Source: an uncultured Bdellovibrionales bacterium (lineage in GTDB: Bacteria > Patescibacteriota > Minisyncoccia > Moranbacterales > UBA1568). Taken from it: a stretch of 64,000 nt of DNA. Numbering within the stretch: the first letter of the stretch is position 1; every line of letters starts with the position of its first letter. Under the pieces are notes generated by a model that was not told the origin of the DNA, ran no database searches, and saw only the letters and a list, made by a program, of their open reading frames with translations. Positions 1-47,607 of this stretch are shown here, in pieces. Location: the NCBI GenBank assembly GCA_964543815.1, contig CAZIZG010000004.1, positions 5,438 to 69,437 on the forward strand. The letters run 5' to 3'. Made by a program: the position numbers and the translations under genes.

Positions 1-539
1 ACAATAATCTCATCTCCGATAGCGAGTTCTACTCCGGAGAGCGTGTACTGATGGCGAAAAATGAGGCAGGAGAGGAGACTCTCATCCTTACTATCCTTAA
101 TAGTGAAGTACACGACCCGCTCCCGCACATCGACACTCGACACCTCGCCCTGAATCCGCGCTGCCATCCCAGAAAGTTCGATATTGAGTCCATCCAAAAA
201 CTCACTGACCGAGATCGTCTTTTCCTCCGTTGGTGCTAATATTTCGTCCGGGGTACCCACGAGTGACTGAAAAAAAGCATCATTTTCACTTTTTTCTGGT
301 CTTGCCATTTCTGTCGTAACCAGACCACCGTTCTCAGCAATAATTCGCAAAAGAACCGCTCCGTATTTCCCAAACTTGGCCTCTTTGATGCCTTTAACCT
401 GGAGCATCTCTTCTTTCGTTCGTGGTAACGCGCCCACTAACGCTTCCAAAGTAGCATTGGACAGCACCCGATATTGCTCCACTCCTTCGATGCGTGCCTG
501 ATGATTACGCCAATTCCGAAGTTCATTCAAAAGAGACAT
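1..539 (-). CDS. Partial CDS running off the 5' edge. N-terminal HRDC-like domain, then an OB-fold resembling the N-terminus of exodeoxyribonuclease VII large subunit (XseA).
   Basis: Manual reverse-complement translation from ATG at 539-537. It reads MSLLNELRNWRNHQARIEGVEQYRVLSNATLEALVGALPRTKEEMLQVKGIKEAKFGKYGAVLLRII (HRDC pattern), then ...ISVSEFLDGLNIELSGMAARIQGEVSSVDVRERVVYFTIKDSKDESLLSCLIFRHQYTL (XseA-N OB-fold pattern). Absent from the ORF track because it is truncated by the window edge. Confidence 0.5.
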   Translation of the reverse strand, partial: MSLLNELRNWRNHQARIEGVEQYRVLSNATLEALVGALPRTKEEMLQVKGIKEAKFGKYGAVLLRIIAENGGLVTTEMARPEKSENDAFFQSLVGTPDEILAPTEEKTISVSEFLDGLNIELSGMAARIQGEVSSVDVRERVVYFTIKDSKDESLLSCLIFRHQYTLSGVELAIGDEII

Positions 540-826
540 TTACCCTGTGTAATAAGATTTAAGTCGATTGCGCAAAAACATCTTTCCCCTGTACGATTTC
601 AAGTACTTTTCTCGATGTGTTGCATCTTTCTGATTTAGACACGCCTCGTAATATATTAACTCAAGTGGCCTCCTTTCCTTTGTTGATTCTACTAATCCTT
701 TCTGATGTAGCTTAAATCTTAATCGCAAATTATTCGTGTATCCAGTATACATGTTTCCATCTGTTTTACTTTGCAGTATATAAGTATAGAACATACTATA
801 TAATTTGCGATATTACACAGGGTGGA
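539..826. mobile_element. Candidate miniature TIR-bounded unit carrying the GIY-YIG gene. Termini are TTTACCCTGTGTAAT (539-553) and ATTACACAGGGTGG (812-825).
   Basis: Perfect 12-nt inverted repeats bracket the 84-aa ORF. The same motif recurs at 4318-4330, 4440-4454 and 47593-47607. Confidence 0.35.
540..794 (-). CDS. Small stand-alone GIY-YIG nuclease (COG2827/YhbQ-like)
   Basis: 84 aa. Has YTYILQS...GNMYTGYTNNLRLRFKLH ... RPLELIYYEA...REKYLK, the canonical GIY-YIG motif pattern. Its stop codon abuts the ATG of the upstream HRDC/XseA-like gene. Confidence 0.8.
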   Translation of the reverse strand: MFYTYILQSKTDGNMYTGYTNNLRLRFKLHQKGLVESTKERRPLELIYYEACLNQKDATHREKYLKSYRGKMFLRNRLKSYYTG

Positions 827-827
827 A

Positions 828-3800
828 CTATCGTCCTTGGTTATAGAGCGCAGCAACCTCAGCAGCCGAAAAGGCTCGATTGTAAGTTCGCACCTCATCC
901 AATTGTCCACTGAAATACTGCCCATCCGCTGAAGATGCTATATAATCAATCGTTGTGTTCCCAGACTGAGCCACATCGGAAAAAAGACGCGTGGCTGAAC
1001 CGCCATCCACATACAAATCAACTTTGTTACTACTGTTCCTAGTCACTACCATATGGTGCCAGGCATTGACAGCCGCCGGCGCAACCGTGTTATCACTCGA
1101 GCCCCCACCAATAACCCGGATAAAGTAGTTTCCACTCACCAACCCATATTTTATATAAATCCCGCCCGTTGTATCCCCCCCAAGCATTATACCCGTTTGG
1201 GAGTTATTCGATGTTTTATACCACCAAGAATACGTGAATTCTCCAGTATATGTCGTATTCGTCACGTCAACATAGTCATTTGTTCCATCAAATGACAGGG
1301 CCTGACTAATCTTACCAATCGTCTTCGTTGGGCCATTGGTGAGCGTCCCAGTATTTCCTATCCCGCTCCGATCATAGGCTGTCGTCCCACTCATATCCTG
1401 ACCATTGAATGACCAGTAGCCTTTCAGACTGGTGTCGACTCCGGTAGGTGCGGTAAGGCGGTAGAGTCGAGAGATTTCATCACTAGAAAGACCTCGACTA
1501 TACACTCTTACGTCATCAACTGAACCAGGGAAATACTGAGAAGCAGAGCGAAGAGCCCCAACAGAGACACGATCAAAAGTTGTCGTCCCTAGAGTTGTAG
1601 TTGAACTCGCCTGCAAGACCCCATCAATATAGAATTTATGATCTCCAGCTGAGCTACTGACTCCTATGGCATGATGCCAGGTATTATCATTCAAACTACT
1701 CGATGTCGAACACATTGATGCCGAATTAAACTGACCATCATCTCTCACAATATACTTTACTTTTCCTCCCCCACAAGGATCAACACTCGAAGTAAACTGA
1801 AGTACTGCTAATGGATCACCAGAAGAAGCGTTTCCTACATTCACTACTGTTCGATAGCTATCAGTTGCATTAGAAGTCTTAAACCAGGCACTAACAGTCA
1901 GAGGAAATCTCGTTACCGTAGCCGCAGCAGTTGATATATGATCATCCGTCCCATCAAACGTCACAGCACTCCCGATTTGCCCTGTCGTCCAGGTCGGACC
2001 ATTGGTGAGCGTCCCGGTGTTACCATTCGTAGATACGTCGGTGGCACTGGTTCCACTCCCATTATCAAGTGGCCAATAGCCAGCAAGACCGCTATCGAGG
2101 CGGCCGGTCCCTTGAGGCTGAGAAACGCTCGAATTAGTCTTGTCATCAGCCCCAGCGTCATAAAGACCCTTCACTTCAGCCGCAGAAAGAGCTCGATTGT
2201 ACAATCGCCCCTCATCAAGAAGACCGGAGAAATCCCAGTTATTGCCATTTCCTCCAAAAGTAAAAGCGGAGCTCGATGACTGAATAGTGGAGACGGTGGC
2301 TGTCCCCTGATACAGTACCGTACCGTCAAGATAGAGCTTCATTCCATTTGACCCTGTCGTTCCGTCCCACGTCGCCATGAGATAATGCCACTGATTATCA
2401 AGAAGGGGTGTAGCACTCCCGGAAATAACATTGGCTGTTGTCCCATTGGAGGTCTGAAAATAGACGGCGCTCGAAAGAATGCCAATCTCATACACCTTGT
2501 TTGCAGAAAGATCAAAACATTTGTCACTTGATCCTATCGCCTTACTCATAATACAGCTATCAGTATCGCTGGTTTTAATCCATACCCCCATACTGATAGC
2601 TCCAGTGATATCAAGAGTATTGGCATCTGCGACCGTCACATAGTCATCTGTCCCATCAAACGAGAGGGCTTGACCCACTTTCCCAGTTACTTTCGTTGGA
2701 CTATTGGTAAGTGTCCCTGTGTTCTTCGCCCCAGAGCGATCGTAAGCCGTTGTTCCTGAAACATCCTGGCCATTGAATGACCAGTATCCTTTGAGTCCCG
2801 TATCGACTCCAGTAGGTGAGGTAAGCCGATAGAGCTGCGCCACTTCATCAGCGGAGAGAATACGGTTATAAAATCGTACTTCGTCTAAAGTGACATCTCC
2901 ATACAAATCTGGCGAACCACCTCCATTTCTGGCACCCATGATGGCGCTATTGATAGTCAGTCCAGTATTGGGGGTGGTCGTGGTACCACTCCCCGCAAAT
3001 ACTCCATCAATATAAAAGGTCATGAGATTGGCAGCTCCTGAAACCGCCGTTACCATATGCCAGTTGGTATCAGTAATAGTGGTTGTAGAAGTAATATCAA
3101 CAAACCCGGTACCAGTAACCCGAAAGATACAGTGGACCTTATTATCAGTTCCCATGTAGAAAAACAGCCCCTCTTCCTGAACAGAAGCATCCCGCTCCCA
3201 AAATATATAATCCACCTCTCCGGAAGCATCACGTTTCACCCAGGCAGATATGCTCATATTAGCCTGTGGTTTAATGGCAGCCGTTGGGGAGATGGTGATG
3301 TAATCATTGGTGCCATCAAAGGTCACTCCGCTCCCTATCTGCCCTGTGGCCCATGTCGGGCCATTGGTGAGAGTACCATTACTCCCGTTGGTCGAGGCAT
3401 CAGCCGCGCTCGTCCCGGTATTCTCATCAAGCTTCCAGTAGCCCGCCAGTCCTGAGTCAAGGCGACCGGTTCCTTGGGGCTGCAGGATGCTACTGTTCGT
3501 TTTGTCACTTTGACCAAGATTATAGAGAGACTGAATTTGAGCAGCCGTGAGGGCAGTATTATAGACACGGACCTCATCAATAGCTGCGTTTACATTGCGC
3601 TGTCCACCAGTATCATCACCCACGACAAAACTGTCACTATTAGAAACAGAACCGCTAGTAGCAGTCATCGAAGTATTGAAAACGCCATCGATATAGAGAT
3701 AGGTAGTACTCCCCGAACGGAGTCCTACATAATGATGCCACTGATTATCATTGGCTGTTGCTAGAGTAGCAGTGAGGTCATAGTCTGTCGTCCCATTACC

Positions 3801-4316
3801 AATAGCAAAAAGCATTTGATTAGCACTGGAATAACGAAAACCATAGCCAGCAGTGTTCGGGGCGTTCACATTCTTTTTCCCTACAGGAATATTAACCGAA
3901 CTCCCCTGTGATGAATACCCACTCCCTTTCATCCAGAACCCGACCGAAAAATCACCGGAACCGAAATCGAGCGTTCCACCTCCTGGATCACCCATCGTCA
4001 CATAAGCATCAGCATCAGAGCCACCGGGAAAGAAGTTAAGGGCCTGACCAACCTGGCCTTTGACCTTTGCCGGGCCATTAGTGAGTGTCCCGTTGTTCCC
4101 CGAGCCACTTCGATCATAGGCGGTAGTACCAGAAATATCATCTCCGTTAAATGACCAGAGACCAACCAGGCCATTCGTCACCATGTCGTTTTGAGACTGA
4201 TTGAGGGTGCTGCCATACACTTTGAAATACCAATAGGCACCAGCAAAAACGGCCAGTATTAAAACTATTCCAATCCATTGGAACATTCTGGCTTTAGTTG
4301 TTGAGTAGTTTGGCAT
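828..4316 (-). CDS. Giant membrane-anchored secreted protein with four tandem LamG / concanavalin-A-like lectin domains
   Basis: 1162 aa with an N-terminal TM helix (IGIVLILAVFAGAYWYF). Four ~230-aa repeats each end in the LamG signature LDEVRVYNRALSAAEV / LDEGRLYNRALSAAEV / LDEVRTYNRAFSAAEV. The DNA-level repeats are about 80% identical. The gene is flanked on both sides by the ATTACACAGGGT motif. Confidence 0.7.
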   Translation of the reverse strand: MPNYSTTKARMFQWIGIVLILAVFAGAYWYFKVYGSTLNQSQNDMVTNGLVGLWSFNGDDISGTTAYDRSGSGNNGTLTNGPAKVKGQVGQALNFFPGGSDADAYVTMGDPGGGTLDFGSGDFSVGFWMKGSGYSSQGSSVNIPVGKKNVNAPNTAGYGFRYSSANQMLFAIGNGTTDYDLTATLATANDNQWHHYVGLRSGSTTYLYIDGVFNTSMTATSGSVSNSDSFVVGDDTGGQRNVNAAIDEVRVYNTALTAAQIQSLYNLGQSDKTNSSILQPQGTGRLDSGLAGYWKLDENTGTSAADASTNGSNGTLTNGPTWATGQIGSGVTFDGTNDYITISPTAAIKPQANMSISAWVKRDASGEVDYIFWERDASVQEEGLFFYMGTDNKVHCIFRVTGTGFVDITSTTTITDTNWHMVTAVSGAANLMTFYIDGVFAGSGTTTTPNTGLTINSAIMGARNGGGSPDLYGDVTLDEVRFYNRILSADEVAQLYRLTSPTGVDTGLKGYWSFNGQDVSGTTAYDRSGAKNTGTLTNSPTKVTGKVGQALSFDGTDDYVTVADANTLDITGAISMGVWIKTSDTDSCIMSKAIGSSDKCFDLSANKVYEIGILSSAVYFQTSNGTTANVISGSATPLLDNQWHYLMATWDGTTGSNGMKLYLDGTVLYQGTATVSTIQSSSSAFTFGGNGNNWDFSGLLDEGRLYNRALSAAEVKGLYDAGADDKTNSSVSQPQGTGRLDSGLAGYWPLDNGSGTSATDVSTNGNTGTLTNGPTWTTGQIGSAVTFDGTDDHISTAAATVTRFPLTVSAWFKTSNATDSYRTVVNVGNASSGDPLAVLQFTSSVDPCGGGKVKYIVRDDGQFNSASMCSTSSSLNDNTWHHAIGVSSSAGDHKFYIDGVLQASSTTTLGTTTFDRVSVGALRSASQYFPGSVDDVRVYSRGLSSDEISRLYRLTAPTGVDTSLKGYWSFNGQDMSGTTAYDRSGIGNTGTLTNGPTKTIGKISQALSFDGTNDYVDVTNTTYTGEFTYSWWYKTSNNSQTGIMLGGDTTGGIYIKYGLVSGNYFIRVIGGGSSDNTVAPAAVNAWHHMVVTRNSSNKVDLYVDGGSATRLFSDVAQSGNTTIDYIASSADGQYFSGQLDEVRTYNRAFSAAEVAALYNQGR

Positions 4317-4317
4317 T

Positions 4318-4454
4318 CACCCTGTGTAATTCATGATTGAAATAATTTCAATCATGAATAAAATTATTTCCCTACGACCTCTTCATTTTACCATTTTTTT
4401 CCCTAGGATACACCGGGCACACATATGATACATTTTGCAATTACACAGGGTAAA
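4318..4454. repeat. ORF-less 135-bp unit bounded by the same inverted motif (CACCCTGTGTAAT ... ATTACACAGGGTAAA), with an internal 27-bp perfect palindrome at 4331-4357
   Basis: Termini match the GIY-YIG unit termini. The internal palindrome is tcatgattgaaataatttcaatcatga. No ORF. MITE-like derivative or regulatory module. Confidence 0.35.
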
Positions 4455-4460
4455 TAAAAA

Positions 4461-4493
4461 ACAGAGTTCTGCCTGAGGCAGAACTCTGTTTTA
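4461..4493. terminator. Rho-independent terminator hairpin downstream of the DsbA-like gene
   Basis: acagagttctgcc-tgag-ggcagaactctgt followed by TTTT, and A-rich on the other side (bidirectional). Confidence 0.6.
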
Positions 4494-4510
4494 TGCCCTA
4501 AAAAACCCTC

Positions 4511-5341
4511 TTATTTGAGATACTTCTCGATTGTCAGCTTGAAACCATCGATAGACTGAGCCCCAACTACCCGTTCACCGGTTACCGTCCCGTTACTCTC
4601 GAGCTTACCAATAACAAAACTCGGAGTACCAGAAATACCTGCTTTGCCGCCGTCAGCGATGTCCTTCTGAATTTCCTCCTTCACAGCGTCAGTAGCCGAG
4701 CACGTTGCAACCGTCTTGGCATTAGCTCCTACTTTCCCAATGAGCTCATCAAGCTTCCCTGCTACGAGACCTTTGCCGTTAGTCTGAGTATTCTCATACA
4801 ATGCCTTAGCAAAAGCAAAGTAGGCAGTATCACCCTTCTCCTTTCTCACACATTCAGCCGTTGCTGCCTCGATCGTAGCGTTCGGATCGTGAAATGAGAG
4901 CGGAAAATCACGGAAAACCACAATAGCCTTCCCGGTATCGACATAGTTTTTCACCAAAGCATCAAAGGTATCAGCATGAAACTTTTTACAGAAAGGACAT
5001 TCATAGTCGCTATACTCCACGATAGCCACTTTGGCTTTCTTCTTATCTCCGAGGACGGGATCATCATCAATAGAGGTGACAGCACTCGTATCCTGATTAC
5101 CCGGCGCTGCCTGCTGAGTTCCCTGAGCAGTACCCGTTCCTTTCGTAGCTCCCTGAGGAGAGAGCGTCAGGATAGAACCCGCAATGATAAGACTCCCTAA
5201 AAGGACCGCTCCGGCTACCAAAAGTGCCTCCTTCAGTAATTTCTTTTCACAGGCACCACACTTTCCACATTTCTGACATGCGGAACCATCAGCAACTGGC
5301 ACGACTGACTCTTCCTTTGTCGGCAAAACTTCATTTTCCAT
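4511..5341 (-). CDS. DsbA-family thiol:disulfide oxidoreductase, membrane-anchored, with a Cys-rich cytoplasmic N-terminus
   Basis: KVAIVEYSDYECPFCKKFH thioredoxin-fold active site. Has an N-terminal CQKCGKCGAC cluster, then a TM helix. Confidence 0.8.
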   Translation of the reverse strand: MENEVLPTKEESVVPVADGSACQKCGKCGACEKKLLKEALLVAGAVLLGSLIIAGSILTLSPQGATKGTGTAQGTQQAAPGNQDTSAVTSIDDDPVLGDKKKAKVAIVEYSDYECPFCKKFHADTFDALVKNYVDTGKAIVVFRDFPLSFHDPNATIEAATAECVRKEKGDTAYFAFAKALYENTQTNGKGLVAGKLDELIGKVGANAKTVATCSATDAVKEEIQKDIADGGKAGISGTPSFVIGKLESNGTVTGERVVGAQSIDGFKLTIEKYLK

Positions 5342-5397
5342 AGTCGTTACTTCTCAACGATTTAACTGCTCCAGTGTACCATAAAATGACGCCTCCC

Positions 5398-6111
5398 TCA
5401 AAGAGTCTTTGTCTCTTGAGACTGGCGAGAGAGATTATAGTCACGATAGCTCTTGGCTACAGCATCAATACCTCGCTTGAGGGGTGGCAAAAAATTCTGC
5501 CAAGCTAAAAGCTTGAGACTTATATACGCAAAAGTGATCAGAGCTGCTTGTATGAGAGCCAGAGGAGATATTCCTCGTTGAATGGAGAAATGATGAATGA
5601 GCACAAGCGGCAACACTACATATACCATCCGATGAAGACGCTTCCAGTTAATACCTCCCAAACTCCGCTGAGCCCAAACATTTGAAGTCAAAAGAAGAGG
5701 TAACGTAATACCATACGCTACCAATCCCAAGAAATACGGAATACTCTCCCCTGAAAGGCCAGTTTCTTGAAAAAGCGCCGTGATAGACCCGGCCCAGTCA
5801 GGATCAATGAAATACCCCAGTCCATGGACAGTGGCAAGGTATCCCATCATAATTCCCATCTCCCGCCGTAAAGCCATCAGCTGGAGCAATATTCTCGTCC
5901 GAAGAATTTTCGAGACTGGACTGAGAAACAATACTCCTAACAGCATAAGCTCAGCCGCGCTCCCAAAATTCCGACGTAATTCAGGAAAGAGCAATCCGAA
6001 CAATGCCAGATGAGCCACCACAAGCAATGTCCTTTTTATGAGAAGAAAGTGGGTTGCAAGTAAACTACTCGCCCAATCATGGAGTCGATATAACGGAAAA
6101 AGGTAGGTCAT
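5398..6111 (-). CDS. Ferric-reductase-like transmembrane domain protein (MsrQ/YedZ-like heme-binding membrane subunit)
   Basis: Six predicted TMs. Conserved His-bearing helices (ALRREMGIMMGYLATVHGLGYF; WKRLHRMVYVVLPLVLIHH). No Cys, so not VKOR-like. Confidence 0.45.
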   Translation of the reverse strand: MTYLFPLYRLHDWASSLLATHFLLIKRTLLVVAHLALFGLLFPELRRNFGSAAELMLLGVLFLSPVSKILRTRILLQLMALRREMGIMMGYLATVHGLGYFIDPDWAGSITALFQETGLSGESIPYFLGLVAYGITLPLLLTSNVWAQRSLGGINWKRLHRMVYVVLPLVLIHHFSIQRGISPLALIQAALITFAYISLKLLAWQNFLPPLKRGIDAVAKSYRDYNLSRQSQETKTL

Positions 6112-6324
6112 ACTCTGTATTTAATGAGAAAAAAAGAAATACATGCCCGTCAAAATAACAACGTGCATGAACGCCAGCCCTATTACTATCACAAGCGTTT
6201 TATCCATGATTCAAGAACAAGGGTATTATTTTTTATCATAGCGAAGAAACAAAGGAATGGGAAGAATTCCCCTTAGAAAAGGAGATGAAATGTGGTATCC
6301 TGAGGATACATTCGAAACACAAAC

Positions 6325-7629: not shown

Positions 7630-7632
7630 ACT

Positions 7633-8826: not shown

Positions 8827-8872
8827 AAGACTTCCCTGGGGAAGTCTTTTATACTTTTATGCTCCTTGCCAA

Positions 8873-10642: not shown

Positions 10643-10671
10643 ACTGTTTGTTTTTATCCTACTCTCCCGGT

Positions 10672-12111
10672 TTAAGAAGATTCCTTATCGGTCTCGATAT
10701 CGCGTGATAACACTCTCCTTTCATGCCGACGGAGTTCCTGTTCATCCGCTCGTAATCGACTCTCTAAAATTTCAATTTCTCGTTCCTCGCGACGCAGCTG
10801 ACGAAGCAGCCAATACATCATCATCCCTAGCACACCAAAGGAAAAGAGGCTCCCCCCAACAACATAGAGCAGTGGACTTTCTAGAGTACTCACGCCATCC
10901 CTGAATTCTTCCCAAAACGTATCTCGTGCCTCTCCCTGATTCTGCCAAGTGTGACATTTGAAAACATAGGGAGCAGTGATACCCTCTGTCAAAAAAGCCG
11001 AGTGGGTTATATTTGTCTTCATAAAATGTGTCAGTGCCGTATCGCAGTGACGTTCAGTAAAGGCCTGAAGACCGGCACGGAAGGCCTGGCCATAGACTCC
11101 CTCCTCCGGCAAAATTCGCCCCTCAAGAGCCTGCTCTTTGACAATCTCAATGGGAAGAGCAAAAGCAAAATTATCACCAGCAGAACGGGACAGCTCGTCA
11201 GTTTGAAAGGAAATCATACCAAGCACCTCCCCCTCTTCATTGAACAATGGACCGCCACTTGACCCCTGAGAAACCTTGGCATCAGTCTGAAATATTTTGA
11301 GTTGGCCGTCTTCAGTTTCACGTATGGCACTTACTACTCCTCGCGTAAAGGTGGCAACGGATGGATTATTCTGATTAATTTCCGCTGTCGCTGGAAAACC
11401 GAAAATAAAAACCTTTTTACCCAATGAAAGATCAGCCGAAGAGCCCAGAGAAAGAGCTGGCAGATTTCTCTCCTCGATTTTTAAGAGAGCGACATCCCGT
11501 TCATCCACAAAAAATTGCTCATGCGATGCCACAACCTGAGCTGGAAAACCGGATTGCATAAGGTCACGCATCGAAACATCTTTTGCTCCAGGTCGTAGTA
11601 CCGCAATATCGTGATTGAGATCAAAAACACTGTGATCAATGATAAACTGGATAATCTCTCGTGAGAATCTTTTACCGTCTTGATCATCCAAAAATTGCTG
11701 CATTTCTTCTTCACTGAGCGATAATGCATTTTCATATATGGCCGAAAGGGCGCTTTCAGAGGCTAAGGAATTTTTAATCGTCACGAGCGAGACTACATGG
11801 GCATTGGTTGCGATATACCCATCAGCATGGATGATAAAGCCACTCCCAGTAAGGTATTCATCCACCGCCACATCAGAGAAACGATCAGGTATCACTACTA
11901 CCGATTTCTGTCTCAAGTCCACTTTGACCAAAGGAACACGCGCCGTTCCAGTAACATGTTCGGCAATGCGCACCACTGAAGGTTTAATCAAATCGGCCAA
12001 GGCATCTTCAGAAAGGATAGTGGCGGCGCTGACGATGCCCACACTACAAAAAGAAAAAATGATAGAAAAGATACTGAGCCCAACAAGACGAAAAAGAATC
12101 GGGTATGCCAT
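10672..12111 (-). CDS. Trypsin-like serine protease (HtrA/DegP S1C family) with a C-terminal TM anchor and charged coiled-coil tail
   Basis: GSGFIIHADGYIATNAHVV (His region) and GSSGGPLF (Ser region). N-terminal signal/TM. No obvious PDZ domain. C-terminal TM plus RREEREIEILESRLRADEQELRRHERR tail. Confidence 0.75.
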   Translation of the reverse strand: MAYPILFRLVGLSIFSIIFSFCSVGIVSAATILSEDALADLIKPSVVRIAEHVTGTARVPLVKVDLRQKSVVVIPDRFSDVAVDEYLTGSGFIIHADGYIATNAHVVSLVTIKNSLASESALSAIYENALSLSEEEMQQFLDDQDGKRFSREIIQFIIDHSVFDLNHDIAVLRPGAKDVSMRDLMQSGFPAQVVASHEQFFVDERDVALLKIEERNLPALSLGSSADLSLGKKVFIFGFPATAEINQNNPSVATFTRGVVSAIRETEDGQLKIFQTDAKVSQGSSGGPLFNEEGEVLGMISFQTDELSRSAGDNFAFALPIEIVKEQALEGRILPEEGVYGQAFRAGLQAFTERHCDTALTHFMKTNITHSAFLTEGITAPYVFKCHTWQNQGEARDTFWEEFRDGVSTLESPLLYVVGGSLFSFGVLGMMMYWLLRQLRREEREIEILESRLRADEQELRRHERRVLSRDIETDKESS

Positions 12112-13368: not shown

Positions 13369-16300
13369 CCACAAAAACCCTCGTATGGAGAAAGAATCTT
13401 CCTTCCTCGATCGTCTTACCTTCGATCCAGCCCAGACCAGAACACTTATTGCTGCCTACTTTAGGAATGTTCGCACTATCATCCTGATTGTTCTTACGCT
13501 CACTCTGGCAGGCGGAGCTACTTTCTTCACTCTTCCCAGAGAGCTCAACCCCAATATTCAAATACCGATTGTTTTTGTCTCAATTCCTTTCCCTGGGGCT
13601 GGTCCAGAAGACGTCGAGCAGCTCGTTACTGTGCCAATCGAAGATGCTATAAACGGCCTTTCTGGCGTCAAAAAAGTCTCTTCTGTTTCACAGGAGAATA
13701 TTGCCACTCTGAACATTGAATTTGAATCTGGTGTCGACCCAGAAAAAGCCAAACGAGATGTTCAAGGTGCCCTTGACGGTGTTAATGATCTCCCAACTGA
13801 TACTCAAACACCAAAAGTACAAGTACTTGATTTTCAAAATCAACCAGTCATGAATTTTATTCTTACTGGCGATACTGATAGCGCCACCCTGACGCGCTTG
13901 GCCGATATCCTCGAAGACAGGTTGGAGGACCTTTCAGGAATTGAAAAAGTTACCGTATCATACCGTCAGCCCGAAGAAATTACCATTAGCCTTTCTCCTC
14001 AGGTACTCGCCGAACGCAACCTGAAACCCCTGGCAATAGGAAACAGCATCAATCAGGCAATCGCCAATCATCCCGCCGGAACAGTGAGTACGAGCGGTAC
14101 CTCCTATGCGCTCACCCAATCCACCACCGCCCAAAGCGTAGAGAATTTACGTCTGCTTCCCCTCATGCTTGGAAAGGATGTTGTCCCCCTCGGCAACATC
14201 GCTCACATCACCACAACGCCAGCCCATAATGCCCCCGAAGGCCTGTATGCAGACGCTACCACGCCTCCGATACGCGGCATTATGTTCTCTGTCTGGAAAA
14301 CTGATAACGCTGATACTGCTGATGCTGTCACAAGCATCAACCAAACCATAGAGAAACTTAAGAAAGAAATAGGTGTTTCGTTCATCTTTGAGCCTATTTT
14401 TGATGGCGCCAAAGAAATCAAGAAAAGCTTCGATCAGCTTTTTCATGATTTTGCCCTCACGCTCCTCCTGGTCTTTTCAGTGCTCTACACCTTCTTTGGT
14501 TTGCGCCAATCCATCATCGCTGCCCTTGCTATCCCTCTTACCTTCCTTGGTACGTTTCTTGTGATGAATGCTTCTGGTATTTCTATCAACTTCATCGCTC
14601 TCTTCTCGCTCCTCCTCGCCCTCGGTATACTTGTTGACAACGCCATCGTCATTATTTCAGCCATGGCAAGTTACGAGCGGACCAAAAAATTTACTCCCGA
14701 TCAAGTAGCTCTCCTCGTTTGGCGCGATTTTCGAGCGGTTATCTTCACGACTACCATTACCACCGTTTGGGCCTTTCTCCCCCTCCTCCTGGCAAGCGGC
14801 GTCATAGGCGAATTCATCAAGCCTATTCCTATCGTTGTATCATCTTCCTTGGCAATTTCTGCGGTCATTGCCCTGCTCATCGTTATCCCCCTCATGGCTA
14901 TGCTGCTCAAGGGAGCTTTCCCTCGTCGTGTCGTCCTTCTCGTTTATGCCCTCCTCTTTCTCGGTGGAGCTACCCTTCTCTTCGTACTTATACCGGTTGG
15001 ACCCCAAAAAACATTGCTCTTTCTCATCGCTCTGTTTATCCTTTTTCTCGTTGGTAAACTTTCCCGCTCTGTCCGCCAAAGATGGCACCAGTATGAAGCC
15101 TCGCACTTCGCTACTTTTTTCCGCTCCTTCCATAGACTGTCTGACAATGGCCTCTTTAATTTTGACCCTCTCGCCCATCGATACGAGCGATTCATTGCCG
15201 GAGTGCTTGGTTCCAGAAAAGCCCGTCGTAAAACCATTGCCCTCCTCATCGTGTTTTCCATCTTTTCTTATGCTCTAGTTCCATTGGGATATGTCGTAAA
15301 TGAATTTTTTCCCAAGGATAATAAAGACACGATTTTTATCAGCGTCGAGCTCCCTAAAAACACCTCCTTAAAACAGAGTACCGATGAAGCAAGAACGTTG
15401 CTTGATCAGTTGCGCTCATACAAAGAAGCCCGATTTGTCGTCGCGGAAATTGGAGCCGCCCCACCAACAAATAATTTTGTTACTGGTAAAGACTGGAACA
15501 ATCTCCTCTTTACGATGATGGTAAATGGAGCCAAAGAACGTTCGATGACCTCAAGCGAGATTGTCTCAGATCTCAATCATCTCTATGCTAATTATAATCG
15601 TGGTAAACTCGTAGCCAGTCAGCTCTCCGGTGGTCCACCAGCCGGTAGCGATATTGAGCTCAAGCTCCTTGGAAATGACTTACCTGCATTGCAGGCCTAT
15701 GGCAAACATATAAGTGCCTTCCTGGAAGAGCAGCCTGGTATTACCAATGTCTCGACTTCGATTACCTCTGGATCAAGTAAAATAACCTTTGAACCAAATC
15801 AAGAACTCTTGGCTCAAAATGGCGTAAGCGAGAACGATACTTCTTTTCTGCTACGGACATTAGGAAGCGGCTACACCATTAAAAATGATGCTCGATTGAA
15901 AGATGAAAAGTTTGATATTGTCCTTCGCTTCGGCGGTACTACTCATCTCGAACACCCTGAAAGCATCAGCGCAGTGACTATTCTCGGTACGCACGGCCTT
16001 ATGCCACTCTCTGCTCTCGGTACCTTCTCACTTGAGTCTAATCCTACCCTCATCACTCGAGAAGACGGTAAGCGAACCCTTTCCGTCTCCGCAGGAGTAG
16101 CCGATGGCTACTCCGTGAGCACCCTCAACGCGTCTTTGGAAAAATTTGCTGACACTCTGAATCTTCCCGATGGCTATCGGTGGAAAACTGGCGGCGTCAA
16201 CGACGAAAATAACAAATCCGTTCAGTCCATTCTCGAGGCTATGCTTCTCTCAGCTATTCTCATTTTTGGCACAATGGCCATTCAGTTCAATTCCTTTCGA

Positions 16301-16723
16301 AAGGCTCTCATTGTACTTCTGGTGGTACCCCTTGCTGTTTCTGGTGTCTTCATCATGTTCTCGCTCTTTGGCATCCCACTCTCATTCCCAGCTCTCATTG
16401 GTATCCTAGCTCTCTTCGGTATTGTCGTTAATAATTCCATCATTATGGTTGATAAGATTAACCGCAATATGGAAAGTGGTCTTCCTCTTACCCAGGCCAT
16501 CAGTGAAGGCGCAGCCAGCCGACTAGAACCAATCCTCCTCACCGCTATCACCACCATCGTTGGACTCATCCCGATTACTCTCTCCGATCCTATCTGGCAG
16601 GGTCTCGGCGGCGCGATTATTGCTGGCCTGACCTTTTCTGGTGTAGCTAAACTTTTCTTTATTCCAGTCATCTATCAAATCTGGTTTCAAGAAAATGAGC
16701 GGTCAGTAATTCCAAAAGCATAA
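13349..16723 (+). CDS. RND-family efflux permease (AcrB/HAE1-like)
   Basis: 1124 aa with 12 TMs and two large periplasmic loops, showing typical RND sequence patterns throughout. Confidence 0.85.
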   Translation: MFQQHCNHKNPRMEKESSFLDRLTFDPAQTRTLIAAYFRNVRTIILIVLTLTLAGGATFFTLPRELNPNIQIPIVFVSIPFPGAGPEDVEQLVTVPIEDAINGLSGVKKVSSVSQENIATLNIEFESGVDPEKAKRDVQGALDGVNDLPTDTQTPKVQVLDFQNQPVMNFILTGDTDSATLTRLADILEDRLEDLSGIEKVTVSYRQPEEITISLSPQVLAERNLKPLAIGNSINQAIANHPAGTVSTSGTSYALTQSTTAQSVENLRLLPLMLGKDVVPLGNIAHITTTPAHNAPEGLYADATTPPIRGIMFSVWKTDNADTADAVTSINQTIEKLKKEIGVSFIFEPIFDGAKEIKKSFDQLFHDFALTLLLVFSVLYTFFGLRQSIIAALAIPLTFLGTFLVMNASGISINFIALFSLLLALGILVDNAIVIISAMASYERTKKFTPDQVALLVWRDFRAVIFTTTITTVWAFLPLLLASGVIGEFIKPIPIVVSSSLAISAVIALLIVIPLMAMLLKGAFPRRVVLLVYALLFLGGATLLFVLIPVGPQKTLLFLIALFILFLVGKLSRSVRQRWHQYEASHFATFFRSFHRLSDNGLFNFDPLAHRYERFIAGVLGSRKARRKTIALLIVFSIFSYALVPLGYVVNEFFPKDNKDTIFISVELPKNTSLKQSTDEARTLLDQLRSYKEARFVVAEIGAAPPTNNFVTGKDWNNLLFTMMVNGAKERSMTSSEIVSDLNHLYANYNRGKLVASQLSGGPPAGSDIELKLLGNDLPALQAYGKHISAFLEEQPGITNVSTSITSGSSKITFEPNQELLAQNGVSENDTSFLLRTLGSGYTIKNDARLKDEKFDIVLRFGGTTHLEHPESISAVTILGTHGLMPLSALGTFSLESNPTLITREDGKRTLSVSAGVADGYSVSTLNASLEKFADTLNLPDGYRWKTGGVNDENNKSVQSILEAMLLSAILIFGTMAIQFNSFRKALIVLLVVPLAVSGVFIMFSLFGIPLSFPALIGILALFGIVVNNSIIMVDKINRNMESGLPLTQAISEGAASRLEPILLTAITTIVGLIPITLSDPIWQGLGGAIIAGLTFSGVAKLFFIPVIYQIWFQENERSVIPKA

Positions 16724-17529: not shown

Positions 17530-19278
17530 TCAGGAAAAGGTGAAGGCATACACCGCTACTCCAGGCGATACCAGGAGTTCAAGTGTATGTTCCCCAGAAG
17601 TTCCCTGTATCAATTCATAGAGGCGATCTTCATGAACCGTGACAACTCCCTCTCGCACATCAATACCAGAAATAGCTTTCTCAAGCGGTTTTCCATCCAT
17701 AACTATCTGAACCGTTCCAAGTCCAGTTGCTGGTGGTGCCATCACGAGAAAAACTTTTTTTCCCTGAAATCGAAGTTGTAATCGTGCCTTCTCTCCGGCG
17801 ATGGCTCGTTCTTGCTCCACTAACCACTCACCTCCAAAACCAAAAGTGTCGGACAGAAGCGCCTTTGGTAAGGTAAAGTGCTGTTTGGTACCTATCACCT
17901 GTTCGGATGAAGAAAAACGCTCCATACGTTTTGATCCGAGATATGTTTCCGGTGTTTGTGGTTCAGGGACCAGTCTATCCCCTGAGTGATTATCCGTCAC
18001 ATCCCCCTCTATTTCCTGCCCCGCCTCACCCAGGAGAAGTTGAATTGCTCGCTCCGTTTCCTCATACCCTCCTTCGCCAAAGTGATACTGCCGAACGTTC
18101 CCTGAAGCATCAATCAGATAGTGGGCTGGCCAGTATCGATTATGATAGGCCTGCCATGTTCCGTAGGAATTATCCTGAGCTACCGGATACGTAATCCCGT
18201 ATCGCACGAGGGCATCCGCCACATTGGCTGTTTTCTTCTCAAACTCAAACTCTGGAGTATGGACACCAATAATAACGAGTCCTTTGTCTTGATAGCGCTC
18301 ATACCATTGCGTAAGGTACGGCAGTGTCCGTACGCAATTGATACAGCTGTATGTCCAAAAATCAATGAGGACAACCTTGCCACGAAGTTCCCCAAGTGTG
18401 AGAGGTCGATCGATATTGAGCCAATTCATAATACCCGTAAACTCCGGGGCCATTCCATAGTTCTCTAGTACCGGCATTTGTTTTGATGGCACATCCGGCA
18501 CCTTAAACGGTGACTCTTGTGTCTCTTTCCGAAGGCTATCCAAGGCTTGAGTCACAATGCCATTTGTTTGAAAACGATCTAAAAACGTAATGCCATTTGC
18601 AGAACAAAACTCAGCAAAACGTACCTGAAGTTTCTGATCATAACCCGTATAAATAGCTAGAGCAGAAAATATCGTGAGAACCCCGAAAGCCTGTTGGATT
18701 CTTGTTGTATAGGGAGCAAAAATTCGTGTGCGTCGAAGCACCTGCTGACCAAGCACGGTCAAAATAAAGAGAGGTACCCCCACTCCCGAAACAAAAGCGA
18801 CCGTAACAAGAACCGTTGAGATACTCAGTGCTTGAGTCGCGGCCAACGTGGCTACTGTGGCCAGAATAGGTCCAGCACATGGCGACCAAATGATACCTAG
18901 AGCGAAGCCTGTTATTAACCCTCCCTTAAAGCCCGACTGCTTTCCTAGTATCTCGCCACCGAGATAAGAAAAGCGACTCACGAACGCCTCCAACATGATT
19001 CCTATCCCCGGTACTACCATGGTAACACCGAGTAAGCTTATGACAATAACCGCAAAGAGACGAAGCGTGTCTGGATCGATCGGGACAACACGAAGCAACG
19101 AAGAAAGCGCCAAGGTAAAAAAAGTAAAACTAGTAACAAGGCCCGCGACAATACCAATAGGCCGCCGCTCACCACCAGAAACCCCAACTGAAAGGATAAT
19201 AGGAAGAAGCGGCCAAATACAAGGAGCAAATATAGTTACGACACCAGATAAGAAAGCGAAGAGGATAAGTAGAATCAT
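17530..19278 (-). CDS. DipZ-like fusion: CcdA/DsbD-type transmembrane domain, plus a thioredoxin-like (redoxin) domain, plus a C-terminal beta domain
   Basis: N-terminal 240 aa is multi-TM with paired Cys (FAPCIWP, SPCAGP). Central FWTYSCINCVRTLPYL is a thioredoxin CxxC. Confidence 0.75.
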   Translation of the reverse strand: MILLILFAFLSGVVTIFAPCIWPLLPIILSVGVSGGERRPIGIVAGLVTSFTFFTLALSSLLRVVPIDPDTLRLFAVIVISLLGVTMVVPGIGIMLEAFVSRFSYLGGEILGKQSGFKGGLITGFALGIIWSPCAGPILATVATLAATQALSISTVLVTVAFVSGVGVPLFILTVLGQQVLRRTRIFAPYTTRIQQAFGVLTIFSALAIYTGYDQKLQVRFAEFCSANGITFLDRFQTNGIVTQALDSLRKETQESPFKVPDVPSKQMPVLENYGMAPEFTGIMNWLNIDRPLTLGELRGKVVLIDFWTYSCINCVRTLPYLTQWYERYQDKGLVIIGVHTPEFEFEKKTANVADALVRYGITYPVAQDNSYGTWQAYHNRYWPAHYLIDASGNVRQYHFGEGGYEETERAIQLLLGEAGQEIEGDVTDNHSGDRLVPEPQTPETYLGSKRMERFSSSEQVIGTKQHFTLPKALLSDTFGFGGEWLVEQERAIAGEKARLQLRFQGKKVFLVMAPPATGLGTVQIVMDGKPLEKAISGIDVREGVVTVHEDRLYELIQGTSGEHTLELLVSPGVAVYAFTFS

Positions 19279-36807: not shown

Positions 36808-36862
36808 TATTCATACTAAAACACCTTCTGATGTATTCAGAAGGTGTTTTTATTCTCATTCA

Positions 36863-39748: not shown

Positions 39749-39758
39749 ACAAATAAAA

Positions 39759-40412: not shown

Positions 40413-40416
40413 AGTT

Positions 40417-40980: not shown

Positions 40981-40997
40981 ACCAATACCCTACTAGT

Positions 40998-43187: not shown

Positions 43188-43197
43188 GATGCTGTAA

Positions 43198-43878: not shown

Positions 43879-43910
43879 AGATTCACGCTACTGAAGTTAC
43901 CACCTTCCTT

Positions 43911-44309
43911 CTAACGTTGATCAATTAACCGGGCTAATTCTGCCAACTTCTCACGCGTCAACTCCTTTTCCATTGGCGCTTGGACTTGGGTCTTTTGATT
44001 CGTTGGTGCTTTAACCGTAGGAAGAACCGCAACCGGACGTTCCCAAACCGCTACCTTGGGACGGAAAACGAACAACGTTGCACTTCCGAGAAAAGTAGTC
44101 ATCGGGAGACCACTCGGCTGGTAGAAAGCCATCGCGCAGAAAATAAGCACAACTGGAATAGCGATAATAATCGAAAGCGATGTATCAAAAATACTAAATA
44201 CGACAAGTAGTACACCAGCCATACCAATCATCCAGAGGAGTTGTTTCCAGGTTAGAGGACCGACAATTTTGTCCTCAACATCAATAAATTGTGGGACGGA
44301 AAACATCAT
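43911..44309 (-). CDS. VirB3/PrgI-like small two-TM protein
   Basis: 132 aa with two adjacent TM helices, positioned directly upstream of VirB4 as in T4SS operons. Confidence 0.4.
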   Translation of the reverse strand: MMFSVPQFIDVEDKIVGPLTWKQLLWMIGMAGVLLVVFSIFDTSLSIIIAIPVVLIFCAMAFYQPSGLPMTTFLGSATLFVFRPKVAVWERPVAVLPTVKAPTNQKTQVQAPMEKELTREKLAELARLIDQR

Positions 44310-44312
44310 ACA

Positions 44313-45341: not shown

Positions 45342-45349
45342 AATAACAG

Positions 45350-47452
45350 CTACAATACAGAAGCCACATTACCCTTCGCTTGTTTTTTAATCTCCTGATA
45401 CCTCTGAGGATTTGATTGTTGTAGATCCTGAACAACACTAATAGCAACCGGCGCATAAGGAGAACTCGTAAAGAGCGAAGATTGGTCAGCTATTTCGCCT
45501 ACCTTCATATTATTAAGTATGTTCTGAATTATAGCCTTTTCTTGTTGCTGACTCACTGGCCCAGCCGATCGAGCTTCGTTAATCTGATGATCAACAATGA
45601 GAGCAGCCCCTCCTTCTTTCTTTATCTTGTACTCAAGTGCCCCTCGAAGACTTGCATGCCGTGGATCATTCGGGTTCGACATAGCTGGGGTGCTCAGTAC
45701 TGACGCATAGTCAGCGGCCGAACCTGAAAAGGCAGAATCATCCAATTTGGAAATTAAATCGTTGATTGCCTTCTCATTATTACCGAGTGAACTAATTACT
45801 GATTGTAAGTTTTGCAAACCAGACTTAGCCGGCATGGTTCCAGTGGCTGGCGTAGCAGCGATAATCTTCTTATCAGCCTTGCTTATTATTTCCAGTGCCT
45901 TCTCATCATAAGTTGGGTCTGGAATAGTGCGTAGACCAGTAGCCGGATCAACCTTCTTCAAGGCATCAAGGGCCCTGGTCAAATCTTCCATGCTTTGAAT
46001 ACCATTGTCCATGTTTGCCAAGGAACCAGCACCCGAAATACGCATGATGTCATCTGTCGATTTGAGCCGATCAAGCGCATCTGTTCGACTAATCTTATTC
46101 TCTTTATCCTTAGCCATCTGTTCATGAATTTGTTTATCTTTGAACTTCTGTAGCTCGGATTTCTGAGCTTTCTTAGCGCCCCCTACCATGCCGGTCGGAG
46201 TAGCAATTCCCTTTGCAGCACCTTTGCCCCAAGATTCGAAGGTACTTGGGCTGGCGAAAAATCGCCCAACTTTACTCGTTTCAAAACGTGACGTCGCTCC
46301 CTTACTAACACCACTCGCGAACTTCCTTCCAGGATACGTAAGTCCTGCGGCACTCTTTCTTCCAAACCACTTAATAAATTTTTGACCCTGACCAGTGACA
46401 GCACCGGCACCCATGATAGAAAAGGAGGTGGCCAATCCGATAGCCATCCACAGCATAACGATTGGAATCGTGAACATAGCCATGGAACTAATAAAGCCCG
46501 CTGTCTCTGGTGTGCCGTTTTGGATACCATACTTCAAGAATTGTGCCTGCGTATTATCTTTCGCAATCTCGGCAAAAAACTGGGTAGCAATATAAAGCAT
46601 GAGCATCGCCGCTGGCCCAAAGAGGCTGTATTGCCAGAGTTTTTCCCACCACATATTGCCATACTTTTCCATCCCGGGAATAACCGAGGCAGCAAACCCT
46701 ACTGAAGCAAAAATAAGGAGAATGATAAGGGCAGCCAAACGCACAACAAAAAGCACTGCGAGTACCAGAAGTGAAATGGAAAAAATAAAGAGAAAAACAA
46801 TAGCCATCAGTATTTGTGAAACACCAATTTGACTGAACTTAACCTCACTAATGCCCACATCGGAACCAGGTATAAGTATGCCCTGGATTCGTGAGGCACT
46901 TAGAACAGTACCTAAGTAGGAATCTTTACCAGAAACCGTACCAATTTGGTTCACAAAATAGTACATTGGAACATTGGTCATATCAATAATGACCCGAGTC
47001 AAAGGAAAGCTAAAGTTTACAAAAAGGGCTGCGAGCACAATAGAGAGGAGGGTTTTTTTGTAGTCCTTAGCTACCTGAAAAACGATGGTGAAGGCAGTGT
47101 AGAGCAACGTGAGAATGAAGAAGAGGTTGAAGAAATCCCGAATGAACTTCCACATGACATACACACTATTCCTATTGAGCAGTCCATCATTGCCGGAAAT
47201 GTAATTTGGATCAATAGCCCATCCAAAAAGCGTTACAGCAACAGATGCGAACCATCCAAACATGGTAAAAATACCATAGAGCAATCCTTTAAAAACATTA
47301 CTCACAGAATCGACTACTGCATCTGTCGCAAAGCCCCAAAAACCATCAGCATGAACTGCAGGTGGTGCAAGAAAAAAGATACTTGAAGAAAAAACAAACA
47401 GTGCCAAGACAAAAACTATCCCCTTTTGTTTTTTGTTTTTTGGAGAAAACAT
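45350..47452 (-). CDS. VirB6/TrbL-like polytopic membrane protein with a long soluble C-terminal extension
   Basis: Signal peptide, then ~8 TMs over 330 aa, then a 350-aa soluble tail. Confidence 0.5.
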   Translation of the reverse strand: MFSPKNKKQKGIVFVLALFVFSSSIFFLAPPAVHADGFWGFATDAVVDSVSNVFKGLLYGIFTMFGWFASVAVTLFGWAIDPNYISGNDGLLNRNSVYVMWKFIRDFFNLFFILTLLYTAFTIVFQVAKDYKKTLLSIVLAALFVNFSFPLTRVIIDMTNVPMYYFVNQIGTVSGKDSYLGTVLSASRIQGILIPGSDVGISEVKFSQIGVSQILMAIVFLFIFSISLLVLAVLFVVRLAALIILLIFASVGFAASVIPGMEKYGNMWWEKLWQYSLFGPAAMLMLYIATQFFAEIAKDNTQAQFLKYGIQNGTPETAGFISSMAMFTIPIVMLWMAIGLATSFSIMGAGAVTGQGQKFIKWFGRKSAAGLTYPGRKFASGVSKGATSRFETSKVGRFFASPSTFESWGKGAAKGIATPTGMVGGAKKAQKSELQKFKDKQIHEQMAKDKENKISRTDALDRLKSTDDIMRISGAGSLANMDNGIQSMEDLTRALDALKKVDPATGLRTIPDPTYDEKALEIISKADKKIIAATPATGTMPAKSGLQNLQSVISSLGNNEKAINDLISKLDDSAFSGSAADYASVLSTPAMSNPNDPRHASLRGALEYKIKKEGGAALIVDHQINEARSAGPVSQQQEKAIIQNILNNMKVGEIADQSSLFTSSPYAPVAISVVQDLQQSNPQRYQEIKKQAKGNVASVL

Positions 47453-47592
47453 ACGTTACACGAGAGAGAAGCCCGTAATCAAAGACTCAATCATGAACGA
47501 AAAAAATCTGTTTCGTTCGCGCGTATTATACCACAAGAAATCGGAAATATAAAAACCCTGCGTAATTTCGCGAAGCAGATTGGCTCTGCCAG

Positions 47593-47607
47593 ATTACACA
47601 GGGTAAA
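47593..47607 (+). repeat. Solo copy of the ATTACACAGGGTAAA motif
   Basis: Exact 15-mer, identical to 4440-4454 and to the reverse complement of 539-553. Confidence 0.5.

Follow-up and report, generated by a model that had tools for sequence, protein, structure and literature searches.

Ssn proteins are single-domain GIY-YIG enzymes, such as the 94-amino-acid (aa) SsnA of Neisseria meningitidis, that bind and cut a cognate hairpin repeat (NTS/SRM) solely as single-stranded DNA (ssDNA) and on one strand; they are inactive on double-stranded DNA (dsDNA) and RNA, and SsnA does not bind RNA (Chenal et al., 2025, Nat Commun, PMC11893778). The ssn genes are typically flanked by the repeat on both sides, in an insertion sequence (IS)-like NTS-ssnA-NTS layout (PMC11893778). 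A gene resembling them is present in the 64-kb stretch of contig CAZIZG010000004.1 (assembly GCA_964543815.1, a Patescibacteria genome) that was analyzed here and is referred to as the window: it encodes an 84-aa GIY-YIG protein and is enclosed by two inverted 12-nucleotide (nt) arms, and the same arms enclose two further units that contain no open reading frame (ORF). The most probable explanation, to which we assign a probability of roughly 0.7, is an Ssn-like nuclease with cognate split-arm repeats, the arms pairing in ssDNA and the resulting stem being the substrate, in a family of small elements common in Patescibacteria. A literature search that combined GIY-YIG with terminal inverted repeat (TIR), miniature inverted-repeat transposable element (MITE), repetitive extragenic palindrome (REP), Patescibacteria, COG2827 and UPF0213 found no description of this architecture, the sole close precedent being the Ssn paper (PMC11893778); the system is best filed with the Ssn-type nuclease/repeat systems and is undescribed as far as the searchable literature shows.

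The 12-mer ATTACACAGGGT occurs in the window in five exact copies, with 0 expected, and is the only 12-mer with that many copies. Its extended form ATTACACAGGGTR matches exactly at positions 541–553 (−), 812–824 (+), 4318–4330 (−), 4440–4452 (+) and 47593–47605 (+), and it was absent from all 100 dinucleotide-preserving shuffles. The repetition reported by a first-pass annotation of this DNA is therefore real, and the sites that it gave are right except for a shift of about 2 nt in three cases. The fifth copy, which was thought to be solo, has an inverted partner with one mismatch, ATTACGCAGGGT, at 47555–47566 (−), 26 nt away, and is thus paired. The six copies form three pairs of identical relative orientation, ACCCTGTGTAAT...ATTACACAGGGT, which delimit elements A, B and C (Table 1); neither the adjoining approximately 5.5 kb on the left side nor 18 conspecific contigs yielded additional copies.

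Table 1. Coordinates of the paired arms, the elements that they delimit and associated features in the window.
Feature	Position	Strand	Interior	Description
Pair A	541-824		258 bp	encloses the 84-aa GIY-YIG ORF
Right (3′) arm of element A	538..553	−		core ATTACACAGGGT at 553-542 plus outer AAAT; encodes Y-Y-T-G-stop of the GIY-YIG gene
GIY-YIG gene	540..794	−		84-aa single-domain nuclease (Ssn-like / UPF0213-like)
Left (5′) arm of element A	812..827	−		ACCCTGTGTAAT at 823-812, preceded by TTCC
Pair B	4318-4452		109 bp	no ORF
ORF-less element B	4314..4456	−		135 bp between arm ends 4318 and 4452; arms 4319-4330 and 4440-4451
27-nt palindrome	4331..4357			13-bp hairpin; abuts one arm of element B
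Extended −10 TGGTAAAAT	4385..4393	−		inside element B; conserved in L104; consensus match
Pair C	47555-47605		26 bp	no ORF
ORF-less element C	47551..47608			50-bp core 47555-47604; arms ACCCTGCGTAAT (47555-47566, 1 mismatch) and ATTACACAGGGT (47593-47604)

Copies 1 and 2 bracket the GIY-YIG ORF and the motif encodes its final codons, as had been read from the sequence initially: the right arm of element A consists of the last four codons of the gene and the first base of its stop codon, so that TAT TAC ACA GGG TAA (Y-Y-T-G-stop) falls inside copy 1. The left arm is found 17 nt ahead of the GIY-YIG ATG, 0–3 nt past the stop codon (828) of a gene encoding a LamG-domain protein. Directly after the GIY-YIG stop codon, and overlapping the outer part of the right arm, is the ATG (start 539) of the gene for XseA, the large subunit of exonuclease VII, which here carries an N-terminal HRDC domain; the names given to homologs of this gene assign the organism to the Moranbacteria (Patescibacteria). 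No obvious promoter was identified between the left arm and the GIY-YIG ATG, and read-through from the LamG gene is therefore likely. The locus is present on approximately 18 metagenome contigs, in which all four motif sites are identical to those of the window at every base.

The Pfam GIY-YIG domain covers residues 1–70 of the 84-aa protein, in which no second Pfam domain and no DDE, serine, tyrosine or HUH domain was detected, and the conserved GIY-YIG residues Y3, Y5, Y16, Y19, R26, H30 and E62 are invariant in 30 homologs. A total of 5823 database relatives was found, the best 120 of which are 73–100% identical and, where named, belong mostly to lineages of the candidate phyla radiation (CPR). 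The C-terminus, LKSY[L/Y/F]TG, is conserved, and the motif corresponds to the codons of Y-x-T-G-stop. An AlphaFold model (pLDDT 92) is closest to the UPF0213 protein BH0048 and next to Slx1, I-TevI and UvrC; the profile of the protein also matches UPF0213 proteins in PDB, and its TIGR01453 score of 16.5 bits falls short of the cut-off of 56. When plasmids were searched with the window protein (tblastn), a gene of Azospirillum lipoferum (WP_014249537) was found that is flanked by four canonical NTS-type repeats, CGTCATCCCCGCGAAGGCGGGGATCCAG, matching the published SRM pattern. The window protein and WP_014249537 are 34% identical over 68 aa (BLASTP, pairwise E = 6e-13), and hhalign aligns them with a probability of 96.8% (E = 2e-10). 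In Azospirillum, this Ssn-type gene lies on plasmid AZO_p3 (L230, 255.3–255.9 kb) between sufB and sufC, accompanied by two inverted NTS-like repeat pairs, within an otherwise standard suf operon.

Besides this homology to an NTS-flanked protein, the system shares with Ssn/NTS a single-domain GIY-YIG protein of about 90 aa (84 aa in the window; the Ssn criterion is <150 aa), a gene flanked 5′ and 3′ by its cognate repeat (in the window and in 67 of the 79 loci described below), gene-less copies of the repeat dispersed in intergenic DNA (here elements B and C), and co-evolution of the repeat variant with the gene. It differs in that the arm sequence is unrelated to the SRM, the stem halves pair across the gene, with the 3′ half forming the final codons, and the gene-less copies close one or two extra hairpins, giving a three-way junction, rather than being single hairpins; the arms pair with each other and not within themselves and hence are not self-contained hairpins. 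Moreover, the C-terminus reads KSYLTG and not KKWNRxWKxxLIE... as in Ssn, and the hosts are Patescibacteria with a low copy number. The anatomy is thus the Ssn theme with a different repeat design, namely a split stem with one half on either side of the gene and a coding distal half. By analogy with the homologous Ssn nucleases, the motif is probably the recognition site of the nuclease, which had been offered as an alternative in the first-pass annotation.

The arrangement is general. In four other genomes, the 3′ end of the GIY-YIG gene likewise recurs in inverted form ahead of the gene, and the two vary together. Scanning GTDB with one genome for each species yielded 538 confirmed stretches, from which 79 distinct loci were kept, and an inverted copy of the last 12 nt of the gene (at most 1 mismatch) is present 13–30 nt upstream of the ATG in 67 of these. 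The family is very common in Patescibacteria and is also present in some metagenome-assembled genomes (MAGs) labelled Desulfobacterales and Bacteroidales/Flavobacteriales. The motif form ATTACACAGGGTRRA has fewer than 14 specified bases; for a 14–15-mer, approximately 1000–2000 chance matches are expected collection-wide. The 3′ arm ATTACACAGGGT of the window is combined with the 5′ arm ACCCTGTGTAAT, and the corresponding combinations in other genomes are TATTTCACAGGGT with ACCCTGTGAAATA and TATTTAACAGGGT with ACCCTGTTAAATA. The variable codon pairs perfectly with the 5′ arm (T-A, 49; G-C, 12; C-G, 9); a minimum of 12 changes is needed on the tree, and doubly compensated variants were found (ATTTAATAGGAT/ATCCTATTAAAT and CCGGGT/GCCCGG; L059 and L096).

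Conservation extends beyond the 12-nt core by four bases per side, A-T-T-Y before ACCC and R-A-A-T after GGGT, and then ends; the full inverted arm thus has 16 nt, with the motif as its core, 5′-ATTY-ACCCTGTGTAAT...ATTACACAGGGT-RAAT-3′. The fourth arm position (Y/R) is mostly not a Watson-Crick pair: among 70 gene-carrying elements, it is C.A in 34, T.G in 19, T.A in 7 and C.G in 1, with Watson-Crick pairs in 8, and among 122 independent ORF-less copies in the matches listed, 72 have C.A or T.G versus 18 with a Watson-Crick pair. The C.A and T.G states are intermingled across the tree (30 or more changes), and none of 10,000 permutations reached the observed count. Since each element has one ATTC arm and one ATTT arm, its two strands are distinguishable. 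This rule possibly reflects a required wobble-type pair or an asymmetric target, TTC|AAA, that serves in either orientation; the former is favored by a switch from T.G to C.A in situ in the orthologous element B (described below), and the latter by the frequency of switching among close relatives.

Of the gene-carrying copies, 46% lie 0–10 nt before a co-directional start codon, whereas the ORF-less copies in other genomes showed no position next to start codons; this difference suggests that only insertions that preserve the expression of the downstream gene, by read-through or translational coupling, survive. Two loci display local combinations of arm variants. L026 contains an ORF-less pair with ATTACACAGGGT arms (5163–5216) approximately 90 bp upstream of a GIY-YIG element with ATTTCACAGGGT arms (5307–5590), so the gene-less and gene-carrying variants need not match locally. 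At L024 (3860–3935), a 34-bp mini arm pair, ACCCTGTGAAAT-9 nt-ATTTCACTAGGGT, lies 2 nt past the right arm of the GIY-YIG element, a different arm variant thus sitting inside the end of another element; it removes the GIY-YIG stop codon, and the ORF continues as ...YYTGFTL*.

The boundaries of the unit are sharp. In blastn comparisons of the window with approximately 90 loci of other genomes, whose neighborhoods are entirely different, similarity was confined to 537/542–822/824, i.e., it runs from arm to arm. Empty sites, which the earlier reading had proposed to look for in related genomes, were found for the GIY-YIG element (L103–L106) and for element C (L107). Three related species, in which XseA is 75–82% identical, retain the gene order DsbA-LamG-XseA-XseB-POR without the GIY-YIG gene, the gap between LamG and XseA being 7, 63 or 159 bp. 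In one MAG, two copies that are 98.3% identical occupy loci with different flanks (L053 and L055). The unit is probably mobile, or was so formerly, as indicated by the arm-to-arm homology across phyla, the empty sites and this near-identical pair. At the empty LamG-XseA site of L104, the sequence cCCCTGTGTAcacctATG (5975–6003), just ahead of the XseA start, looks like a left arm in decay, possibly left over from a GIY-YIG element that has been lost.

These observations could also be explained by a classical cut-and-paste TIR transposon with its MITEs, in which the arms are dsDNA sites of a transposase, the GIY-YIG protein is cargo or an unusual transposase, and elements B and C are internally deleted. 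The inverted ends, the ORF-less units with the same ends, the empty sites, the near-identical copies at two loci and the exact end of homology at the arms all agree with such an element. However, target-site duplication, which the first-pass annotation suggested looking for in the flanks, was not detectable: no direct-repeat signal was obtained with k = 2–5 and offsets of 0–5 in 98 elements, and the single combination above the cut-off had 2 observed versus 0.2 expected. In addition, the only ORF encodes an 84-aa GIY-YIG protein free of the DDE, serine, tyrosine and HUH domains, the arms are systematically non-identical at position 4 in gene-carrying and ORF-less copies, and the ORF-less interiors are independent covarying hairpins that are not derived from a gene-carrying copy. 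A classical TIR transposon is therefore considered quite unlikely. Structurally, the original proposal was largely right, in that an inverted-end GIY-YIG unit and ORF-less units with the same ends are supported. A phage as carrier was rejected, as the IMG/VR viral contigs contained no relatives and no arm pairs.

The structure of the ORF-less copies was defined largely from other genomes, where short arm pairs of 39–103 bp recur. Approximately 24 ORF-less copies were found in 1.1 Mb of GTDB loci, and a metagenome scan for consensus arms with 14–44 nt between them identified at least 120 stretches, from which 124 elements of 40–68 bp with interiors that all differ were listed. In approximately 90 of these 124, the arms directly enclose two inner hairpins, with which they make up a perfect three-way junction; the inner loops are mostly triloops (TTT, AAA, TTC or GAA), and GCGAAGC or its complement forms an inner hairpin in 20. 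DNA mini-hairpins of the sequence d(GCGAAGC) are exceptionally stable, and their presence would agree with folding in ssDNA. In an alignment fitted to the covariance model, 96% of cells are paired, versus 75% in shuffles and 36–50% when slid, and in the same model-fitted alignment 14 of 14 inner-hairpin pairs carry changes on both sides. Folding energies are 5–10 standard deviations below those of shuffles in the tested copies, with the exception of L054 (z = −2.3), and are similar on both strands. The ORF-less units are thus not empty deletion derivatives, as had been assumed; the GC-rich hairpins inside them are unrelated and are maintained through compensatory changes. Several loci carry clusters of such elements: three lie within 900 bp in L169 (803–860, 1220–1277 and 1672–1716), copies are tandem or nested in L084 (13344–13425), several occur within 2 kb in L054 (3948–5667), a MAG labelled Desulfatiglandales, and further clusters are present in L119, L205 and L197.

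Strong compensatory covariation of this kind is also what would be expected of an RNA element, in which the arms would pair in a transcript, either joining a 5′ leader to the 3′ end of the GIY-YIG mRNA or forming a stand-alone three-way-junction RNA, and would control the stability, processing or translation of the flanking genes. The G of the 5′ side opposite a T of the 3′ side in 11 of 70 elements (a sense-strand G.U), the apparent lack of a separate GIY-YIG promoter with likely LamG read-through, the frequency of co-directional start codons after gene-carrying copies and a T-run after element C on the gene strand are in keeping with that possibility. On the other hand, the structure is equally good on both strands, its loops are mostly triloops with GCGAAGC frequent among them, and the general 3′ flank is RAA on both strands and not a U-tract; the conserved extended −10 box between the arms of element B would leave only one arm in the LamG transcript; and the homologous SsnA does not bind RNA (PMC11893778). 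With Rfam 15 at the gathering threshold, only three tRNAs were found in the window, none at the elements, and sub-threshold hits to FuFi-1 (23 bits) and mir-1991 (25 bits) that overlap hairpins were dismissed as chance matches. An RNA element is accordingly judged unlikely. Pairing of the arms in ssDNA is preferred because the protein is homologous to enzymes that act on ssDNA only, because the triloops are of DNA type and the fold is symmetric on both strands, because a conserved non-Watson-Crick position marks the strands, and because the internal promoter of element B argues against an RNA that holds both arms.

As previously described, copies 3 and 4 are the ends of a 135-bp unit that lacks an ORF and has an internal 27-nt palindrome. 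On the minus strand, a single A separates the right arm of this element B from the ATG of the LamG-domain gene (1162 aa), so that copy 3 ends 1 nt ahead of this start codon. The first-pass annotation noted that copies 2 and 3 adjoin the stop and start codons of this gene, which is correct, but they are not one inverted pair: they are the ends of two separate elements, since L104 retains pair B without the GIY-YIG element. Element B is orthologous in this related species (2251–2383, at the same place), where its arms are identical at 24 of 24 positions, compared with 78% identity in the interior and 70% in the adjacent LamG coding sequence. The hairpin of the L104 copy shows a compensatory change (CATGA/TCATG to CAGGA/TCCTG), and arm position 4 has undergone a double change from T.G to C.A in situ. 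Judged by its sequence, the extended −10 box is a probable LamG promoter, and its position inside the element places the distal arm upstream of the LamG transcript; being conserved in L104 together with this box, element B now seems to serve as the promoter and leader region of LamG.

Element C lies between a CHAP/LysM gene and the promoter of a VirB6-like gene and abuts the −35 box of the latter. Its interior (47567–47592) contains GCGAAGC, at 47570–47576, and a GCAGA..TCTGC hairpin. A covariance model built solely from the elements of other metagenomes recognizes it (E = 8.6e-6) and matches nothing else in the window. The element is absent from the relative L107, and in another relative it is replaced by a related hairpin, ACCCTGC...GCGCAGGGTTTTT. 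A terminator scan made no call at element C despite the T-run that follows it. The element is situated at a terminator/promoter junction, and elements B and C are individual copies that have been co-opted locally. A XerC/D-like tyrosine recombinase gene (49115–50164, +) lies beside the type IV secretion cluster of CHAP/LysM, VirB6-, PrgI- and TraC-like genes; its neighborhood is conserved in L107 and L108 and is hence not linked to the arm elements.

The positions of elements B and C bear on the earlier suggestion of a lineage-specific regulatory box, i.e., a promoter element or transcription-factor operator of the host located at constant spacing ahead of the start codon. In its favor, the order in two copies is motif + R + A + ATG, a promoter lies within element B, and element C is directly upstream of a −35/−10 pair. 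This suggestion is extremely doubtful, given that the motif is coding in copy 1 and travels with a gene family common to several phyla with arm-to-arm homology boundaries, that start codons do not adjoin the ORF-less copies of other genomes, that other genes of the window use TGnTAnAAT promoters without the motif, and that orthologous genes in related species lack it. Four narrower candidates were rejected as well: a Shine-Dalgarno or translation signal (the genome is essentially devoid of Shine-Dalgarno sequences and has short leaders, GGGTG is too near the ATG, and ORF-less copies elsewhere are not at starts); a leaderless promoter with TACACA as −10 and GGG as discriminator (position −7 is A, and the family consensus TTAACA is worse); a DNA-uptake or Chi-like sequence (the density is too low, and the copies are paired and strictly intergenic or terminal); and an intrinsic terminator (the RAA flank is found on both strands in the family, with a T-run at element C only).

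The working model for the Ssn-like nuclease and its split-arm repeats can be formulated as follows. When the region becomes single-stranded, in replication, transformation or conjugation, the two arms would pair into a 12–16-bp stem, which in ORF-less copies would close a perfect three-way junction. The GIY-YIG protein would recognize this stem by sequence and shape and cut at or near its base, in the conserved TTY/RAA flanks. Cutting might then either allow the unit, as a selfish element, to be copied or transferred to new A/T-rich sites of the TTC|AAA type with no duplication of the target, or be retained as a self-marking ssDNA restriction or recombination system, as in Neisseria. What we infer in this model is folding in ssDNA, recognition and cleavage by the 84-aa protein, and mobility as an ongoing process.

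Several findings weigh against this model or parts of it. With the SRM consensus HGTCWY..YYVSBRH..WNVSBRG..RNCYNB, which matches control NTS and the Azospirillum repeats, no match was obtained in the window or in the 124 listed ORF-less elements, and one in the 79 loci; each flank is half a stem, unlike the NTS hairpin. Copy number is low, with three elements per 64 kb in the window and about one ORF-less copy per 40–50 kb in the 1.1 Mb of related loci. The C.A/T.G rule is explicable by wobble or by an asymmetric TTC|AAA target, and an RNA-level reading of the conserved stem is possible too. The age and conservation of element B agree better with domestication than with activity. The polymorphism that a mobile unit was expected to show is seen as presence or absence between related species, but occupancy is identical in all 18 conspecific contigs, and there is hence no sign of ongoing movement within the species. 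This lack of within-species polymorphism, together with the conserved and promoter-bearing element B, indicates domestication of individual copies.

Two further readings concern how the unit reaches new sites. More tentatively than the Ssn-like system as such, the unit may be an autonomous mobile element of an unrecognized class, i.e., a transposon whose sole protein is the 84-aa GIY-YIG nuclease, with a folded ssDNA intermediate in which the arms are paired, cleavage at the stem base marked by C.A/T.G, duplication-free insertion at TTC|AAA-type sites, often 5′ of starts, and the 40–68-bp three-way-junction elements as non-autonomous partners; this is a possibility to which we give less than even odds. 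Alternatively, the gene could encode a free-standing homing endonuclease that cuts an empty TTC|AAA-type allele in dsDNA before starts and is copied by repair, the arms being remnants of the recognition site. The GIY-YIG fold is related to that of I-TevI, the ATTY/RAAT flanks are conserved without duplication, insertions are often immediately 5′ of start codons, and the C.A/T.G rule fits a single asymmetric target used in both orientations. Nevertheless, homing is very improbable: the 84-aa protein has no DNA-binding domain, flanking genes and sequences differ completely between insertions, so that there is no long conserved homing site, the ORF-less structured copies are left unexplained, the flank pair of the orthologous element B switched from T.G to C.A in situ, and the IMG/VR viral contigs contain none. 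Unlike I-TevI and the Seg homing endonucleases, which reside in introns or phage genomes, the present protein is without a C-terminal DNA-binding domain and without IMG/VR relatives.

Partial resemblances exist to other described systems. As in REP/REPIN elements with their RAYT (TnpA-REP), a single gene lies between inverted short palindromic repeats that are also dispersed as gene-less doublets, ssDNA hairpins are probably recognized, no target is duplicated and domestication is possible; unlike here, the RAYT enzyme is a Y1 HUH transposase, and REPs have a GTAG head and hundreds of copies. The IS200/IS605 family ("peel and paste") similarly has no terminal duplication, a conserved short flanking target and a dependence on folded ssDNA, which would apply here as well, but it carries subterminal hairpins at each end, its ends do not pair with each other, and its enzyme is the Y1 transposase TnpA, with or without TnpB. 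Bacterial MITEs such as the Correia elements of Neisseria are likewise short intergenic units with inverted ends, some copies of which give their neighbors promoters or processing sites, as element B seems to do; they differ in their 26-bp TIRs, TA duplication, homologous interiors and absence of a linked nuclease gene. The nearest solved folds are BH0048 (37% identity), a member of UPF0213 like YazA and YhbQ, and Slx1 (TM-score 0.66, root-mean-square deviation 1.6 Å). Slx1 is structure-specific for branched DNA, which fits a stem or three-way junction as substrate, but it depends on Slx4 and a RING domain and lacks sequence specificity, and no flanking repeats are known for UPF0213 genes.

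The genomes of CPR/Patescibacteria are small and are regarded as poor in mobile DNA, and the present unit, a nuclease mini-gene of approximately 285 bp with gene-less partners, is common to many CPR lineages and some other phyla at 70–89% identity. If the protein is an Ssn-type ssDNA endonuclease, the split stem, three-way junctions and wobble-marked strand would represent a new recognition architecture for the biotechnologically interesting ssDNA nucleases and would offer a concrete handle on ssDNA handling in organisms thought to depend on DNA uptake; the placement of the gene inside its own recognition stem would also suggest how nuclease/repeat pairs spread. For annotation, the family accounts for a recurrent intergenic repeat and for many assembly breaks, many homologs being located on contigs of <2 kb.

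Some further features of the locus and its relatives were recorded. The XseA-HRDC fusion (519 aa; window 3–539, −, continuing in L001 at 14803–16362) is kept in more than 100 Moranbacteria-like homologs, and a 66-aa probable XseB comes next. On L022, a CPR chromosome labelled Saccharibacteria, a second and different small GIY-YIG gene (5924–6190, −; 88 aa, weak T5orf172 match) is located 4 kb from the 84-aa gene, beside a type I restriction-modification system and toxin-antitoxin genes. The genes of the window are almost without Shine-Dalgarno sequences, and extended −10 boxes (TGnTAnAAT) are positioned 8–35 nt upstream of the ATG, for example at the starts of the genes at 10672–12111, 17530–19278, 50179–52431 and 52504–54141, suggesting that the mRNAs of this Moranbacteria-like organism have very short leaders or none.

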